Virus genome (UHGV): UHGV-0138524
Strand: one strand, 5' to 3'
DNA from: a virus
Length of the DNA stretch: 20,478 nt
Numbering within the stretch: position 1 is the stretch's first letter; the number at the start of each line of letters is the position of its first letter. A program made the translations under genes and the position numbers. A model generated the notes under the pieces. That model worked only from the letters and a program-made list of their open reading frames with translations. It was not told the origin of the DNA and made no database searches. Positions 1,268 through 20,478 of the stretch are shown here, in pieces.

Positions 1268-1598
1268 CCGAGCCCCCGATAGTTATCTGGTACTCAGTAC
1301 AATTCGACGCCTGCGACTTACTCAGCACAATGTCGGCCTGCGGTGATGCCAGTTCGACACGCTGCACCCCCTCAACATGCAGCGCCGCGTAAATGGCCGA
1401 CAGACGGATATCACGCCCGAGGCGGTGCTGCGCGCTGATGTAACTCTGCAGCTTTTGTTCTGATGCCTGCCTGATGGGCTCAGACTCGGGGCCGGGGTAA
1501 ACGTAGAGCGTCGCGTCAATTTGGTACGGCACAATCTCGGCTGACTGGACGGTCAATTCCGCTTGGCTGAATGAATCCGCGACGCTGTTCCGCCGCAA
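1260..1598 (-). pseudogene. J: Baseplate protein J, C-terminal fragment only (5'-truncated)
   Basis: 112-aa ORF (...TVQSAEIVPYQIDATLYVYPGPESEP...HRLGRDIRLSAIYAALHVEGVQRVEL...) resembles only the C-terminal third of P2 gpJ; upstream sequence switches to portal-like coding on the other strand. Confidence 0.65.
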
Positions 1599-2040
1599 GT
1601 ATTATCAGAACGGCGCGCACGCAGGCTACATCATGTATGTGACTGACCCGGCGCAGAGCGCGACCGACGTCGAATCGCTGCGCGAGGCGATGCGCAACTC
1701 AAAAGGGCTCGGCAACTTTAAGAACCTGTTTTTCTACGCTCCCGGCGGAAAACCGGACGGCATCAAAATCGTGCCACTGAGCGAGGTCGCCACAAAGGAT
1801 GACTTTTTCAACATCAAGAAGGCCAGTGCCGCCGATCTGATGGACGCGCACCGCGTACCGTTCCAGCTCATGGGCGGCAAGCCCGAGAATATCGGTTCAC
1901 TCGGTGATGTTGAGAAGGTGGCAAAGGTATTTGTGCGCAACGAGCTGTCGCCGCTACAGGACAGGTTCAGGGAGGTAAATGACTGGCTCGGCATGGAGGT
2001 CATCAGATTCAAAGAGTACACCCTCGACAACCCAGAATAA
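1594..2040 (+). pseudogene. Q: Portal protein (P2 gpQ-like), C-terminal fragment only
   Basis: Translation ...FRRKYYQNGAHAGYIMYVTDPAQSATDVESLREAMRNSKGLGNFKNLFFYAPGGKPDGIKIVPL...HRVPFQLMGGKPENIGSLGDVEKVAKVFVRNELSPLQDRF... resembles the C-terminus of P2-family portal proteins; the frame is open only from 1507, so the N-terminal two-thirds are absent. Confidence 0.6.
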
Positions 2041-2070
2041 CTTAGGCCGCCACAATCTCTGCGCTCATTA

Positions 2071-2099
2071 TTGAAGATGCAATCTGCGAAAGCTATAGT
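2071..2099 (+). promoter_or_regulatory. Candidate sigma70 promoter for the 334-aa ORF
   Basis: TTGAAG (2071-2076), 17-nt spacer, TATAGT (2094-2099), about 19 nt upstream of the ATG at 2118. Confidence 0.4.
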
Positions 2100-2117
2100 G
2101 CATCGAATATCAAAACA

Positions 2118-3122
2118 ATGGGCGCGGAGATTAATATTTTGGAAACTGATTTTAAAATAACCCTCGAAGGTTTCGCTACTGAGCAAGAAGCAAATAATAT
2201 CGGTAATTTCACACTAGAAGCTATCCGAGCTTTAACAAAAAATCTCAATCTTGATATCTCCAAATTAAAATGCGTGATTGTTTCCTATAACTTCAGTGAA
2301 GCTCTTCAAAAGGTAACATCCTCTTACCAACACAAATCCCCTAGTTCATTTACCAATAGCAAACAGGGCGCAGCCGTCGGGCAGTTAGTAACAAAAATTG
2401 GCAATGATGGGCTATGTGAAGAATATACCCTTGTGCTATCGATTGATTTTTTTGTTGAGCTTTTCAATGATGGTAGCTTCTTAAAACTGAAAGAAGAAGG
2501 ATACCTCGCAGTCATCCATCGCATTCACCATGAATTAGTGCACGTACATGAAAAAAACTTACTAACATGCTTAGCCCAAAACTTTACAGTCAACGAGTAT
2601 GGTAGCGCGCTTCTTATCTCAGCCACGCGTGCATGGTCTGAATATCTCGCTAATTACATGTCTTCGGGGTCTGCCCCTCAAGAAACTATCGATTTATTTT
2701 TAGAGAATCTTGACACTGTTGTAAATGAAGTATCTGACGAGATTGAAAAACTCATCTGGGGTTATAAGTACGGTAATATTTCTCTGAATGACATGTATCT
2801 TGAAGTAAAAAAACGTATCAGGCTAATCATCAACTCTTATGCTTATGCGATGGGTTATGTCCATTCTCTAAACATCAATATTAAAGAATACGATCCAAAG
2901 CTATCCCTTACACTATCCAACTCAAAGATAAGATATCAATTATCAGAATTAGGCATTGCTTTTCAGAATCTTTATGGGAAGTTTAATGACCAGCACATTA
3001 CAGGTTTTGGTGATTTTCGGGAGATAACAATAATCATTGATGAAATATTCAAGCAGTTTGGGCTTGTTTTAGAGTGTCCCGATTGGTCTGGCGACGGTGA
3101 ACTCTACATACATGTAAATTAG
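2118..3122 (+). CDS. Hypothetical 334-aa protein with an HExxH (zincin-like) motif; AT-rich accessory gene between the portal remnant and cos
   Basis: Long ORF in clearly AT-rich DNA compared with its neighbours; motif IHRIHHELVHVHE (HELVH) at about 2524-2550; no phage core gene recognised. Confidence 0.6.
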   Translation: MGAEINILETDFKITLEGFATEQEANNIGNFTLEAIRALTKNLNLDISKLKCVIVSYNFSEALQKVTSSYQHKSPSSFTNSKQGAAVGQLVTKIGNDGLCEEYTLVLSIDFFVELFNDGSFLKLKEEGYLAVIHRIHHELVHVHEKNLLTCLAQNFTVNEYGSALLISATRAWSEYLANYMSSGSAPQETIDLFLENLDTVVNEVSDEIEKLIWGYKYGNISLNDMYLEVKKRIRLIINSYAYAMGYVHSLNINIKEYDPKLSLTLSNSKIRYQLSELGIAFQNLYGKFNDQHITGFGDFREITIIIDEIFKQFGLVLECPDWSGDGELYIHVN

Positions 3123-3341
3123 TTTAATCATAGTAGAAACATAATTAGCAGTTTGAATCCTGCCACTCCTGTAAAGCCGCTGCTCCTGGTGGCTTTTCCA
3201 TGCACACCACCATCACGCATCAGATGCGTCTCACGCGCACGAACACACTCGACCACCAACGAACCAGCAGCGACCACGACAGCGCCATCACGACGCGCTC
3301 AGAGGATAATTTTTATTATTACGCATCACTGCTGGCGCGCA

Positions 3342-3360
3342 ATGCTTTCCCCGCCACGCC
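3342..3360. other. cos cohesive-end sequence (186/P2 type)
   Basis: ATGCTTTCCCCGCCACGCC; reverse complement GGCGTGGCGGGGAAAGCAT equals the 19-nt cohesive end of coliphage 186 as I recall it and differs at two positions from P2 GGCGAGGCGGGGAAAGCAC. Confidence 0.6.
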
Positions 3361-3520
3361 TGCCCGCTTTATGGGGCGGTTTTAATGCAGTTGCATGACA
3401 ACTCTGGATCCGCGCTAGCTCTGGCGGCGCACGGACAGAACGGGCAAGACTGACGCATGCAAAACCATGCACCTAATGCATGCACGACTAAAAAACGGGA
3501 AATTCGCGGAAAAATGGCAT

Positions 3521-3686: not shown

Positions 3687-3992
3687 TTATTTGCGCATTC
3701 TGATGTGATTTAACAGGTGTTTGATAACGACTGATAGCTCATCTTTACCGGCCTGCTCGACCATTTTTGCGGTGTAGCTTTCCACCTCGCGAGAGCTCAG
3801 GTCGTTATTTAAAGCCATTAAAGTCAGATTCTTTGCCCAATCGGCAAACGGGTCATTTTTCGATGAAAGGGGATTTTGCATGTACAAAAACCTCGAATTA
3901 TTTAACCAGCAGACGGTTGAAGTATTTGCGACGCTATGACCGGCTAACGCCTCGCGTAGCTCGTTGTTCAACCCCGCCAGCACTGAAAGCAA
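3687..3992 (-). CDS. Hypothetical 101-aa protein in the SOS operon (TTG start as called)
   Basis: ORF downstream of the DinI-like gene in the same orientation; no family recognised. Confidence 0.4.
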   Translation of the reverse strand: MLSVLAGLNNELREALAGHSVANTSTVCWLNNSRFLYMQNPLSSKNDPFADWAKNLTLMALNNDLSSREVESYTAKMVEQAGKDELSVVIKHLLNHIRMRK

Positions 3993-4014
3993 GTTTCAGC
4001 ACCGGCGGCGTTTG

Positions 4015-4547: not shown

Positions 4548-6770
4548 TTACCCATGTATTGGTTTTGATGCTTCAGCCATCGCCGCAACACGATTAAGGA
4601 TTTTCCGAGCTTTAGCCTCATGCGATGGTGCTGCGGAAAATATTTCTCCTTTGGCCGTTCCGCGTAGCCATTTACCATCAAAACAACTTTTACCACCGGC
4701 CATCAGGTGCAGGGCTTCGCCCCGGCTGATATTAATGCCGGTTGTCAGATGTATCTCATCGATAGTTTTAGCTATAGCTGCGTTTTGCTCATCCGTTCCG
4801 TGGATGAATTTTCGCCGTGCTGCTGGCTTTTGCTTCCTGAGTCGGTTGGTCAATTCTCGTCTTTCACGCCGACTCAGTGGTTTTGTTAAATCCAGTATCG
4901 GTGGATCGCTTTCGCTTCCCGTACAGTTATTGACAGAACTCCGAGGGACGGCTTTGCCGTCCTGAAGGTCAACGGCCAAATCAACAGCACGCTTCGGAAC
5001 AATCTTCCACTGAGTGAGCCGGGTTAAAATCGGGCTTCCTGCACCTATGGAGGAATCGTAGACCCCCTTAATACATACCGTTTCCTCACCGTACTGATTA
5101 AGCTCGGTGCGCGGTTCATACAGTGTGCGCACCTGTAAATCATCGCGACGGACAAACGGCCCACCCTGAGCATTAACATAACCAGCCCAGTCACCAGCGT
5201 CGGCGGCATCATGGACGGCGGCAAACTCAACGCTCAGACCGTGCGCGGTTTCGGTATCAGCGAGGCGACGCAACTCACGGTAAACCGTCACCGGCGCACC
5301 ACCAATAAACTGAAACTGACGGATGTGCCAGCGCGCAGCCCATGCTGAAACGGCGGGGGCTGTCTCTTTCAGCAGCTCACCGCTTTCATCATCGGTTTCA
5401 CCATCGAGAGCATAACCGTCGATATTTTTTGAAATGTATTTAGCAACATAGCCGGTTGCGCTGCCTTTCTCCGGGTCAATGGACTCGGCGTGGAAACGTG
5501 CTTTTTTGGATTTATCGCTTTTCAGTTCGTGGCGGTCTTCTTTCCATGCGTATTTACGGACGATGGAGCGAACATATTCAACATCTTCCGGCAGCATGAA
5601 CATCAGCATGTGCCAGTGTGGAGTGCCGTCGTGATGGGGCTCGGCGACACGAATACCGAAAATACGGACATCTTCCCGATGTAGTTTGGCACGGATACGC
5701 GCCCAGATACCGGTTAGATAGTTTTGCGTGTCAGCCGGGCTGGCACCGCTCCATTTGCTGTTACGGTAACCGGCTTTAGTCGTGGCGTGATATTTTGACG
5801 GCGCGGTTAGAGTGTAAAACTCACCGACATAACCGAGCTCATTACAGATGTTTTCAAACCCACGAATGCGGGTCATGAGCTCACAGCGGCGAATCGCAGG
5901 GTTAGCAACTGAGCCATCATATTTTTCAATTAGGCTGATACGGTTGCCGTCTTCGTCTTCGAGATCCAGACCTTTGAGAAATTCACGAGTGCGGCGCTTT
6001 TGTTCACGCCAGTCAGTCACGCAGTTTTTACTCGCGTAAGTGTTTTTTTTCTTACTGACGTTGCCGACTGCAATTTGCAGGTGTTCGCGCCACGTAGCTG
6101 CAACACGGCGCAAACGACCGCGCCACCACCCATCGTTAAACATTTTGGCGATAGCCGGTGCGATTTCATCCGCACCGACATATTTTTTTTCAACCCGCTC
6201 CCAATGTGGTGGGATAACGTTGAATTGGAGGGAAATAAAGCCAGCACGAATATACCAGGTGTACAGCGTTTTAAGCTCGCCGAATCCGTGGTCATTAATG
6301 TTGGCAAGTTCACCACGAATGAAATTAGCAATATCAGCGGCCAACAGGTCAACATCAGCGCGCGACATGTCCGGGAGACGGTTATATTGGGCGACCATAT
6401 TAACCATGCGTGACGACAGATATTGCATTTGCTGAGTATCAAAATGACTTCCAAAAACAGCGGTTGATACCTTGCTGTTGATACCAGCGCATTCGTATTT
6501 TTTTGCGACCAGTTCAAGACGCGGCAATGCCTTTTTGCAGAAGCTGATTAAAAATGCATTGGCTCGTTGACTACCCTGATTTTGCTCCAGCACCGCAGCA
6601 GTGCGATAAACATCTAACCGCACGCAGTCGGGCTGGAGAGAAAGCACCTTTTTTGCATGCAGCAAAGCCGCGAACATACGGTCGCGGCGATGCTGTTGCT
6701 CATAAGTAAGGTATGGGCTGGAGATTGCCGACCGTGGGACGTTCCACGGATAAGCGAATTGAACAGCCAA
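4548..6770 (-). CDS. A: Replication initiation endonuclease (P2 gpA-like rolling-circle initiator)
   Basis: 740-aa ORF with HDGTPHWHMLMF (His-hydrophobic-His) and GYVAKYISKN (paired tyrosine) motifs typical of the family. Confidence 0.85.
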   Translation of the reverse strand: MAVQFAYPWNVPRSAISSPYLTYEQQHRRDRMFAALLHAKKVLSLQPDCVRLDVYRTAAVLEQNQGSQRANAFLISFCKKALPRLELVAKKYECAGINSKVSTAVFGSHFDTQQMQYLSSRMVNMVAQYNRLPDMSRADVDLLAADIANFIRGELANINDHGFGELKTLYTWYIRAGFISLQFNVIPPHWERVEKKYVGADEIAPAIAKMFNDGWWRGRLRRVAATWREHLQIAVGNVSKKKNTYASKNCVTDWREQKRRTREFLKGLDLEDEDGNRISLIEKYDGSVANPAIRRCELMTRIRGFENICNELGYVGEFYTLTAPSKYHATTKAGYRNSKWSGASPADTQNYLTGIWARIRAKLHREDVRIFGIRVAEPHHDGTPHWHMLMFMLPEDVEYVRSIVRKYAWKEDRHELKSDKSKKARFHAESIDPEKGSATGYVAKYISKNIDGYALDGETDDESGELLKETAPAVSAWAARWHIRQFQFIGGAPVTVYRELRRLADTETAHGLSVEFAAVHDAADAGDWAGYVNAQGGPFVRRDDLQVRTLYEPRTELNQYGEETVCIKGVYDSSIGAGSPILTRLTQWKIVPKRAVDLAVDLQDGKAVPRSSVNNCTGSESDPPILDLTKPLSRRERRELTNRLRKQKPAARRKFIHGTDEQNAAIAKTIDEIHLTTGINISRGEALHLMAGGKSCFDGKWLRGTAKGEIFSAAPSHEAKARKILNRVAAMAEASKPIHG

Positions 6771-11092: not shown

Positions 11093-11227
11093 CACTGCAA
11101 TTCACTGCATTAAAAATTACTTTAACTAGTTGTTTTATATGGTAAGTGTTTGTTCGCTGTGGGGTGTTAATAGGAGCGTCTTAACTGATAACGTATTCGC
11201 GCTACATCCAAAGCGTGTTATGAAACA

Positions 11228-18411: not shown

Positions 18412-18765
18412 GCGGCAAAAAAAAATGTTGGCACTGGTTCCGGACAGATTCCGGACATGTCTTCATTTGGTAATCAGCGAGCCGATTCGGGGTATCAATA
18501 CCTGCCAGGCGGGTTAATTCTTCAATGGGCAATAGCCATAACGAGAACATCCCCAGAAACAGTATCATTCCCGATTGCGTTTCCAACCAGGGCGCTATGT
18601 GTTGTTGCAACAGACCAGAGTGTTGGGGGTACAGGTCAAGGTTTTGCGTTAACCGCCCAGGATTTTACGAGAACTAATTTCCAGCTACGCGCTTATCAGA
18701 CAGGAACCAACGCTGAATCATCCATCGGCGCTGGCGGGTTTAACTATTTTGCTGTGGGGTATTAA
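18394..18765 (+). CDS. Tail fibre C-terminal variable cassette (start-less Sv segment, silent in this orientation)
   Basis: Frame open from 18394: KVGLGDAAKKNVGTGSGQIPDMSSFGNQ...FNYFAVGY, paralleling the [19 protein letters not shown] junction of H; followed directly by a Tfa gene. Confidence 0.6.
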   Translation, partial: KVGLGDAAKKNVGTGSGQIPDMSSFGNQRADSGYQYLPGGLILQWAIAITRTSPETVSFPIAFPTRALCVVATDQSVGGTGQGFALTAQDFTRTNFQLRAYQTGTNAESSIGAGGFNYFAVGY

Positions 18766-18768
18766 TAA

Positions 18769-19200
18769 ATGGCTTATTTTTATTCAGCATTAAATAACGC
18801 TTTCTACCCTGATGAGCTCAGAGATGTTTATGAAGCGAGTAGAAACTGGCCTGACGATCTCATAGCCGTCTCAGATGAGACATTCACTGAATATTCGGGG
18901 ATGCCACCAGAGGGTAAAACTCGTGGAGCTACTGAGGATGGAATGCCGGCATGGGTAGACATTCCACCTTTAAGCCATGAGGAGGAAATCGCAGCAGCTG
19001 AAGCTGAAAAACAGTATCGTATCGATCAGGCTAATGAGTATATAAACAGCAAGCAGTGGCCGGGTAAAGCTGCGCTGGGGCGACTTACAGACGACGAGAA
19101 GGCCCAGTATAACGAGTGGCTGGATTATCTCGATGCGCTGGAATCTGTGGACATATCCAGCGCACCAGATATCAACTGGCCTGAGTCGCCGGAGGAGTAG
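18769..19200 (+). CDS. Tail fibre assembly protein (Tfa; Mu U / P2 G family)
   Basis: 143 aa ending ...[28 protein letters not shown], the characteristic Tfa C-terminus. Confidence 0.75.
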
Positions 19201-19603
19201 GCCAGTCCGGGTCTGCTGTATCAACTCGCATCAGCAGCACCCGGTATTTTTTCCATTCGGCTAATGAAACAGTTTCTTCTTCCGTCGCGATCCCCGCATC
19301 AACGGCGTCCTGCCGCCATTCTATTTCAGAGTCAGCTGAAGCACGCAGTCGCGATTTTTCGGCTTCTGCCAACGCAATAATTTCCTCTTCAGTTGGTTCG
19401 GGAATATCTATCCATTCAGGTAAACCATCAGAATTAGGAGCGCGTAATTTTCCGTTAGGTGATTCTCCGGCAAACTCAACGAATACGGAATAGTCTACTT
19501 CAACGGCATCGTCAGGCCAGCTACCTGCATTTTCATAAATACTTTTTAGCTCATCAGCGTAGAACGCATTTTCTTTTGCAGAATAAAACATATTAATCAC
19601 CAT
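19172..19603 (-). CDS. Tail fibre assembly protein, second (convergent) copy
   Basis: 143 aa ending ...[28 protein letters not shown]; 3' ends of the two Tfa genes overlap by 29 bp. Confidence 0.75.
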
Positions 19604-19946
19604 CCAATCGCGAAAACTCTAAAGCCACCGTAGCCAGCACATGTAATCTGAGTTCTTGTTACCGTCGTATAGTATGATCGGCCCACCGCTAAGCTATATG
19701 CGGCTGTAGAACTCAAATCAACTGCCCCAGTTGATACATCACTAAATAACGGAATCATGCACTCATTTGGGAATGCAATAGGGAAATTCGCAGTTACTGG
19801 TGTCACATAATCAGTTGTAGTAGCACCAAACCACTGCAATATGATCACCCGTTCTTTCCCGGCGACCATTGCCGGGATAGTCATATAGCCTGTAGAGCCG
19901 GTCACACACACCGCTGCGCCTAATTTTGCTCCCTCTCCCAAACCAA
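19597..19946 (-). CDS. Tail fibre C-terminal variable cassette (start-less S'v segment beginning at crossover site R)
   Basis: [30 protein letters not shown]...[10 protein letters not shown]; its first 17 residues are encoded by the 55-bp repeat also present at 1-55. Confidence 0.65.
19892..19946. repeat. 55-bp exact direct repeat, copy 2 (identical to 1-55)
   Basis: See copy 1. Confidence 0.9.
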
Positions 19947-19958
19947 CGTTTTCCGGAA
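19933..19958. other. DNA-invertase crossover site R (gix/hix-like)
   Basis: CTCTCCCAAACCAACGTTTTCCGGAA; core AAACC-AA-CGTTT; lies 107 bp upstream of the intact invertase. Confidence 0.65.
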
Positions 19959-20065
19959 GACATGGTTACTTCTGACGGTGCGGTACCAGACCTGCAGTAC
20001 AGCCAGAAATGACGATGCTCGATACAATGCGAGGGACTATGACATCTAAATAAAAGGGGATTTTT

Positions 20066-20478
20066 ATGCTGATCGGCTATGTAAGGGTGTCAACAAATGA
20101 CCAGAACACTGCGCTGCAAAGAAATGCGCTGGTAAGCGCAGGATGTGAACAAATATTTGAAGACAAAATAAGCGGCACTAAAGCGGAAAGGCCGGGGCTT
20201 AAGCGTTTATTACGGACCTTATCGGAGGGTGATACGCTGGTTGTCTGGAAGCTGGATAGGCTTGGCAGAAGTATGAAACACCTTATCACGCTTATAGAGG
20301 AGTTGCGGGAAAAAGGTGTTAATTTCCGTAGTCTGACAGACAGTATTGACACATCAACACCCATGGGGCGTTTCTTTTTTCACGTCATGGGGGCTTTAGC
20401 AGAAATGGAACGTGAATTAATTGTTGAGAGAACACTGGCCGGACTGGCAGCTGCACGCGAACAGGGACGCATTGGCGG
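20066..20478 (+). CDS. Serine DNA invertase (Gin/Hin/Pin/Cin family), 3' end outside the window
   Basis: MLIGYVRVSTNDQNTALQRNALVSAGCEQIFEDKISGTKAERPGLKRLLRTLSEGDTLVVWKLDRLGRSMKHLITLIEELREKGVNFRSLTDSIDT..., with the catalytic serine context YVRVST; AAAGGGGA upstream. Confidence 0.85.
   Translation, partial: MLIGYVRVSTNDQNTALQRNALVSAGCEQIFEDKISGTKAERPGLKRLLRTLSEGDTLVVWKLDRLGRSMKHLITLIEELREKGVNFRSLTDSIDTSTPMGRFFFHVMGALAEMERELIVERTLAGLAAAREQGRIG

Follow-up and report, generated by a model that had tools for sequence, protein, structure and literature searches.

What does a gene of about 1 kb do between the portal gene and cos of a 186/P2-like prophage, in a place that related prophages leave empty or fill with something else? 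The question is raised by UHGV virus genome UHGV-0138524, of which the whole stretch of 20,478 nucleotides that was analysed is called the window here. An open reading frame (ORF) at 2118-3122 on the plus strand, starting at ATG 2118 and giving 334 aa in its longest form, had been described in an earlier note on this DNA as horizontally acquired cargo, possibly a metallopeptidase-like defence or exclusion determinant, and was found exactly as claimed there. The gene is accessory and under purifying selection, very probably encodes a zincin-like metallohydrolase, and is most likely to be read, by analogy, as a stand-alone Lit-like anti-phage protease that is not a member of the Lit family.

An Accessory Gene Between the Portal Gene and cos

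The ORF is a real gene under purifying selection, with a ratio of nonsynonymous to synonymous substitution (dN/dS) of 0.17-0.30 against intact copies. The intact 334-aa ORF is present in many genomes, and full-length homologues occur in Escherichia, Salmonella, Citrobacter, Klebsiella, Serratia, Pectobacterium and Yersinia, the most diverged of the series being those of Shewanella, Psychromonas and Colwellia at 40-44% identity; the annotation in every source is "hypothetical protein". Damaged copies occur occasionally, including one with five in-frame stops (L026), fragments of 106-113 aa, a gene split into two coding sequences (CDS) in strain TW10598, and the sequences behind PHROGs 28537 and 30021, which match halves of the protein; the reading that they would favour, of a pseudogene in decay or of an ORF that arose by chance in AT-rich filler DNA, is effectively refuted by the dN/dS values, the full-length conservation from Escherichia to Shewanella, the 355 representative clusters of the family and the confident predicted fold.

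The true start is probably the TTG at 2139, giving 327 aa, because it is preceded by a GGAG Shine-Dalgarno sequence, is the start called by RefSeq in several genomes (WP_225568245.1), aligns with the starts of the majority of homologues, and leaves out residues 1-7, for which the AlphaFold predicted local distance difference test (pLDDT) score is below 50. The GGAG-N10-TTG arrangement is retained in two loci that are 51-56% identical (L028 and L030). Residue numbering throughout follows the 334-aa form.

The composition of the gene sets it apart from its surroundings, as the earlier note had observed. Its GC content is 37.5% and that at third codon positions (GC3) 35.9%, against 55.6% and 74.3% in the portal gene remnant and a GC content of 50.7% in the whole window; in a sliding window, GC is 0.33-0.41 over the ORF, 0.57-0.63 in the left flank and 0.57 at 3151-3450. 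The insertion between portal remnant and cos is equally evident from its size, since the slot from portal stop to cos measures approximately 1301 bp here and 176-177 bp in phage 186 and in the empty slot of the prophage in E. coli strain EC-1639. In phage 186 the late terminator tW (AAGCCGCCAGCATGGCGGCTTTTT) comes after the portal stop. Alignment with phage 186 places the left junction of the cassette where half of the tW stem (AGGCCGCCAC) survives, at 2044-2053, and homology picks up again at approximately 3170, ahead of a tW-like hairpin. No inverted or direct repeats were found at the cassette flanks, and a transposon- or insertion sequence-borne cassette was ruled out on that ground. The portal gene itself is a remnant, as claimed: a 9.9 kb deletion with its junction at nt 1555 has brought a baseplate gene up against portal codon ~188, and the remnant ORF as called spans 1633-2040, with its stop codon at 2038-2040.

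Among 5426 complete E. coli genomes, 68 carry this portal end and 26 carry the gene. It is missing from phage 186, PSP3, SEN1 and others, and a single one of 50,697 phage records, an induced prophage, contains it, so that a core or virion role was ruled out; in IMG/VR the gene follows the portal gene in 12/12 loci. The contents of the slot vary between syntenic loci. In E. coli AST217, whose portal protein has the same accession as the one here, the slot is 467 bp long and holds a DUF2188 gene (L056, 3947-4258), encoded on the other strand and placed downstream of tW, which is intact there. Because that gene lies downstream of tW and the cargo gene upstream, the portal-to-cos slot has at least two insertion points with differing transcriptional wiring. 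The gene is thus accessory, not core, and the AT-rich composition, the 26 carriers against 68 portal ends and the sibling slots that hold DUF2188 or nothing support its description as a horizontally acquired "moron" in a cos-proximal diversity hotspot of a 186/P2-like prophage.

In P2-like phages the cos-proximal gpA-gpQ region, the home of old and tin, is established as a hotspot of defence genes, and the protein is already entered in Table S5A of the survey of that region as "hypothetical" WP_001622301 (Rousset et al. 2022, PMC9122126). With the portal gene ending at 2040, replication gene A at 4548-6770 (minus strand) and the cargo gene and cos between them (Table 1), the window fits this region as the earlier note had supposed. 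The family is therefore one that has been catalogued in a known hotspot and never characterised; a literature search by protein accessions and PHROG identifier returned no paper, and the recent defence-discovery papers that were consulted make no mention of such a protein. The cargo gene resembles old and tin of P2 in occupying the same cos-proximal hotspot, where AT-rich accessory genes vary between sibling prophages, and differs from them in its position, ahead of the late terminator on the portal side. On the other side of cos, that of gpA, lie old and tin themselves, which encode proteins unrelated to the cargo protein. The P2-like hotspot has a second insertion point between the portal gene and the late terminator, which bears on how the expression of cargo is coupled to the phage cycle.

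A Zincin-Like Active Site in a Widespread Family

Searches of Pfam, NCBIfam and PADLOC-DB v2.0.0 with the protein gave no match, even at E<=10. The protein and a profile of 69 sequences, each run against PDB sequences, returned nothing meaningful, the best relevant match being a "zinc metallohydrolase lipoprotein" (E=0.28) in the HExxH region. PHROG 11743 is matched over the full length (E=2.8e-157) and is annotated as of unknown function. No characterised housekeeping or structural family was thus matched, in keeping with the statement of the earlier note that this is no phage core gene and no known defence family. An exhaustive profile search (E<=1e-3) places the protein in a family of at least 355 representative clusters at 50% identity, mostly single-domain proteins of ~310-330 aa, which span Enterobacterales to Firmicutes and Campylobacterota; a second profile search of proteins yielded almost no additional members. 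The genome scan for relatives was run with a 20-sequence alignment, and the superfamily alignment comprises 69 members with a mean column identity of 17%.

The HExxH-type motif reported for the ORF (H138-E139-L-V-H142, encoded by nt 2529-2543) is conserved far beyond chance. It is unchanged in 33 relatives down to 42% identity, and in the 69-member alignment E139 and H142 are present in 69/69 and H138 in 68/69. Further conserved positions are E175, A178 and G246 (each 68/69), W173 (63/69), Y176 (61/69, with Phe in another seven) and position 145, which is D or E in 63/69, giving the family signature hHHELxHVH[DE] ... WSEYxAN. By this pattern H138 and H142 would be zinc ligands and E139 the catalytic base, and the protein is predicted to bind zinc and to act as a peptidase. 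Conservation and helix position make E175 the probable third zinc ligand, and E/D145 is probably a second-shell carboxylate or, alternatively, a ligand itself.

The AlphaFold2 model, built from a 33-sequence alignment, is confident (pLDDT 90.7, predicted template modelling score 0.89). It consists of an N-terminal alpha/beta part (residues 13-115), a long helix (126-148) that bears the HExxH motif, a following helix (160-185) that bears E175, and a C-terminal helical bundle that ends in a terminal beta-hairpin. The predicted catalytic fold is thermolysin-like, with HExxH on an alpha-helix. In structural comparison the highest scores were obtained with M1 aminopeptidases (9.2-7.6), M30 lugdulysin (8.2), M9 collagenases (7.7-7.1), LTA4 hydrolase (7.6) and thermolysin (6.5), and the smaller zincins YbeY, Wss1 and BepA scored lower. 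Foldseek against PDB and BFVD gave nothing at E<=0.001; its weak matches (YbeY, M61, Wss1, SprT/WLM/IrrE-like proteins and a viral "Peptidase") are compatible with a zincin and are not evidence alone.

The conserved site and a predicted fold most like that of gluzincins bear out the term "metallopeptidase-like" of the earlier note, the non-significant Foldseek result notwithstanding, and the cargo gene very probably encodes a zincin-like metallohydrolase. Measured against the gluzincins of clan MA(E) (M1, thermolysin M4, collagenase M9 and lugdulysin M30), however, the protein shares only 6-14% identity, has no profile match to curated peptidase families, spaces HExxH and the glutamate by 32 residues instead of the 18-19 of M1 and M4, and has its own C-terminal helical bundle and terminal beta-hairpin. 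It is concluded from sequence and model to be a distant, uncurated gluzincin-type metallohydrolase, and would deserve a Pfam entry as an uncurated zincin family even if it has no anti-phage role. The family is predicted to be cytoplasmic and the protein soluble because a signal peptide is lacking and relatives have acidic N-terminal extensions; a secreted or lipoprotein protease was ruled out on the same grounds.

A Candidate Exclusion Protease

The one well-studied case of a stand-alone metalloprotease in phage exclusion is Lit (Pfam Peptidase_U49, PF10463), a cell-death peptidase from the cryptic prophage e14; it cleaves EF-Tu once the T4 Gol peptide has bound. The window protein is like Lit in being a single cytoplasmic prophage protein of ~300 aa with an HExxH zinc site, encoded by a single gene, and the local motifs are similar (ILHHEISHV in Lit, RIHHELVHV here). 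Homology to Lit was nevertheless ruled out: hhalign aligns only 19 columns around HHExxH with a probability of 14%, BLASTP gives E=15, neither Peptidase_U49 nor PADLOC gives a hit of this kind among the 69 members, and the prophage type and locus of Lit differ from those of the cargo gene. By analogy, the protein is most likely a stand-alone exclusion or abortive-infection protease that resembles Lit in logic and not in descent, and the odds that the gene acts in phage defence or exclusion at all are even or slightly lower. As the specific mechanism, a Lit-like cleavage of a host factor that depends on a trigger is unlikely. Under such a mechanism, the cargo protease would stay latent in the lysogen, a superinfecting phage would supply the trigger, and the triggered protease would cleave an essential host or phage protein.

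The neighbours of several homologues point to an immune role, as does the fusion of two relatives to a DUF2971 domain (see below). Outside phages the gene is solitary, with no conserved partner, and part of the neighbour annotation consists of family counts and not per-locus maps. Homologues neighbour Wadjet JetABCD together with TerB, Shedu SduA together with a TIR protein, a NERD-domain protein, and type I restriction-modification (RM) and toxin-antitoxin genes; one adjoins a YafO toxin at the edge of a P2-like prophage, and one on a Paenibacillus plasmid has Pycsar nearby. In a Tn7-like element (L010, 6515-9026, GCA_029974635.1) the homologue is surrounded by AAA+S8 (Iet-like), SMODS+SLATT and type I RM genes. 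Other neighbours match the PADLOC models PDC-S14, mad3/mad8, DolB and ShosA, mixed with mobile-element and housekeeping genes, and a DUF2971 gene lies 7 kb from a Pseudomonas homologue. The association of the family with immunity is real and not uniform, and, being listed by locus and not scored against background, is suggestive but mixed. A 2026 preprint reports that many uncharacterised genes of the gpA-gpQ hotspot score as antiviral.

The homologue in the Tn7-like element is 25% identical to the window protein and lies 37 bp after the SMODS + SLATT_4 pair on the same strand, between AAA+Peptidase_S8 and type I RM, and could belong to one operon with the SMODS/SLATT module.

Several points weigh against an exclusion protease. 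No PADLOC model matches the protein, and it is missing from the table of tested systems of Rousset et al. 2022 (PMC9122126). Seven relatives from Arcobacter/Campylobacteraceae (loci L041, L046, L048-L050, L052 and L053; 23-28% identity) lie outside defence islands, beside EamA transporters, Usp, MoeA and ABC transporters, and may be a branch of the superfamily that is chromosomal and has no immune function. At other loci mobile-element genes are mixed with housekeeping genes, and two megaplasmid loci are uninformative. The gene also lies within the late transcription unit upstream of tW, which fits a phage-serving role as well, and the putative lysogenic promoter is weak evidence.

The strongest of the alternatives, itself unlikely, is that the protein is a general cytoplasmic metallohydrolase without immune function, active in stress proteolysis, regulatory cleavage or peptide turnover, which is carried as a moron and whose defence neighbours reflect no more than variable islands. 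The Campylobacterota relatives, which also neighbour HD-domain genes, the several other loci with housekeeping or uninformative neighbours, and the non-defence cargo that the gpA-gpQ hotspot also holds, such as partition systems and toxins, all favour it. It accounts less well for a patchy distribution of the kind expected from horizontal gene transfer, for the AT-rich composition, for the repeated adjacency to well-defined defence systems across unrelated taxa, and for the fusion of the zincin-like domain to a domain of abortive infection (Abi) type that resembles ADP-ribosyltransferases (ART).

Should the protein prove to be a protease active in exclusion, the defence catalogue would gain a compact proteolytic immune module made of one gene; the sole precedent for its mechanism is Lit, which has been known for decades and has a narrow taxonomic range. 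The system would also be a tractable one (1 kb, no partner gene, clear catalytic mutants) in which to find the phage cue and the cleaved protein. It is possible, if doubtful, that the gene founds a new and scattered family of stand-alone cytoplasmic gluzincin proteases, each acting by itself in abortive infection or exclusion. It would be the first broad "Lit-like" class since Lit, and in P2/186-like phages it would be wired to both a lysogenic promoter and the late packaging operon.

Transcription and a Possible Role in the Phage Cycle

The earlier note had described a near-consensus sigma-70 promoter and expression independent of the phage programme. The promoter-like site is present, but it is not near-consensus, with only 9/12 matching, and promoter-like sites in the region show no excess over shuffled sequence (5 found vs 4.1 expected). 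Its hexamers are kept in 10/10 loci, one with TATAGA, and the nearby intergenic bases vary. This conservation mildly backs a promoter, the support being mild because the 10 loci are close relatives with 89-100% identity.

Independence of the phage programme is not supported, since alignment with phage 186 shows the cassette to have entered after the portal stop and ahead of the late terminator tW. Since the cassette lies upstream of tW and no terminator was found between the portal and cargo genes, read-through from the late terminase-portal operon would be expected. In an intact prophage the gene would therefore be co-expressed with that operon, in addition to its own putative weak promoter. 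The late promoter is deleted in the window, so that only the putative promoter of the gene itself could drive it here. In two diverged P2-like phages (51-56% identity) the gene abuts the upstream late-operon gene, a portal-plus-Ogr-like gene.

Because of this late-operon arrangement, a role in the service of the phage has to be considered, in which a late-expressed protease, made with terminase and portal, would degrade a host defence or stress protein as counter-defence or takeover. The reading is less likely still than that of a general hydrolase. The uninterrupted placement between portal stop and tW fits it, as do the post-portal position in all the IMG/VR loci and the arrangement in the diverged phages, where terminase-portal-Ogr-like genes immediately precede the gene on its strand and no convincing promoter belongs to the gene itself. 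It is opposed by a family whose members are mostly solitary genes of chromosomes or plasmids and not of phages, several of them in defence islands, by the single occurrence among phage records, by the intact gene in a window that has lost the late promoter, and by the conservation of the promoter-like site and Shine-Dalgarno sequence upstream of the gene in 186-type loci. Under an exclusion function, the dual wiring could also allow the protease to act on competitors or satellites that exploit the late phase of the helper.

Zincins of Immune and Regulatory Modules

Cytoplasmic HExxH zincins tied to mobile elements and immune operons are also known in ImmA/IrrE (M78) and CapP. The likeness of the window protein to these is weak, consisting of an IrrE-like BFVD match and a capP match at E=0.005 in the distant member P0188. 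Those proteins pair with an adjacent helix-turn-helix (HTH) repressor (CapH, ImmR), whereas none is conserved here, and an ImmA/IrrE-type pairing was ruled out for lack of a conserved HTH partner and of a Peptidase_M78 match.

Two metagenomic proteins of ~595 aa, P0142 and P0204 (L005, 129-1922), carry an N-terminal DUF2971/PDC-S31 part fused to a full zincin-like domain. The metal site is degenerate in P0142 (HRELGH, with H138 lost and E175 replaced by Ala) and kept in P0204. In a PADLOC search of the 69 relatives, matches were confined to these fused DUF2971 parts (PDC-S31), barring the capP match in P0188. Aristaios, a single-gene Abi system of Lactococcus, is a DUF2971 protein, and DUF2971 is ART-like; the window protein, in contrast, has no DUF2971 domain and does not share that fold.

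It is distinctly improbable that the zincin-like domain is mainly a sensor, regulator or antitoxin-like module and not the killing effector, either cleaving a repressor as ImmA/IrrE or CapP do or serving as the partner of a toxin domain. The ART-like DUF2971 fusions, the metal-site losses in P0142, the relative that closely follows SMODS+SLATT, the capP match of one distant member and an HTH gene upstream of the homologue on the Paenibacillus plasmid are in its favour. The gene is, however, solitary in the prophage slot and at most other loci, and neither an HTH gene nor a toxin gene recurs as its partner; the protein matches neither Peptidase_M78 of Pfam nor any PADLOC model, and catalytic residues are retained in 68/69 members.

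Organisation of the Locus and of the Window

The features of the locus are collected in Table 1. To the right of cos lie small accessory genes, dinI and replication gene A.

Table 1. Features of the portal-to-cos region of the window
Feature	Position (nt)	Strand	Remarks
Portal gene remnant	1555..2040	+	C-terminal ~46% of 186 W / P2 Q homologue
AT-rich inserted cassette	~2054..3170	+	~1.1 kb, missing from phage 186
Candidate sigma-70 promoter, TTGAAG-17-TATAGT	2071..2099	+	9/12 match
GGAG Shine-Dalgarno sequence	2125..2128	+	10 nt 5' of TTG 2139
Likely CDS of the cargo gene	2139..3122	+	327 aa, TTG start (Shine-Dalgarno, RefSeq, homologue starts, AlphaFold)
Predicted active-site helix motif H138-E139-x-x-H142-x-x-E145 (HELVHVHE)	2529..2552	+	HExxH (near-)invariant
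WSEYLAN motif	2634..2654	+	On helix after HExxH; E175 at nt 2640-2642
Terminator-like hairpin and T-run	3179..3198	+	Homologous to phage 186 tW; now 3' of cargo gene
cos cohesive-end sequence (ATGCTTTCCCCGCCACGCC)	3341..3359	.	Reverse complement GGCGTGGCGGGGAAAGCAT is the annotated cos of phage 186

RefSeq calls a 61-aa "hypothetical protein" (WP_000557532.1) at 3200-3385 on the plus strand, from just past tW across cos; the call is likely spurious because the stretch is conserved non-coding DNA in phage 186. Rfam gave no non-coding RNA hits within the window, and a non-coding RNA in the region was dropped as a candidate. In some of the prophages that carry the cargo gene (L014, 4528-5469; L015; L002, 7999-8940), a 313-aa hypothetical protein, WP_001622299, is encoded across cos on the gpA side; it has no Pfam match, and its gene is missing from the window.

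The window is a defective 186-like element of ~20.5 kb that keeps cos and the replication, lysogeny and tail genes. Compared with the intact prophage of strain 1008S13, the 9.9 kb deletion has removed part of the baseplate, the lysis, head and terminase genes, and the N-terminal portion of the portal gene. The order of integrase, attP, ogr/D and tail genes shows that the window is the circular or excised (or tandem) form and not a normal integrated prophage; the attP is intact, its 13-bp core (GAGCGTCTTAACT; junction at 11174-11186) being flanked by the two arms of the phage side. A 69-bp repeat (3944-4012) common to two small paralogous hotspot genes has recombined, with the loss of ~337 bp relative to 1008S13, leaving a chimeric 101-aa ORF at 3687-3992 on the minus strand that has no Pfam match. 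The segment formed by 18420-20478 and 1-40, which covers tail-fibre, fibre-assembly and partial recombinase genes, differs from the 1008S13 prophage, to which the window is otherwise 99.8-99.9% identical, and would fit a variable or invertible host-range cassette.

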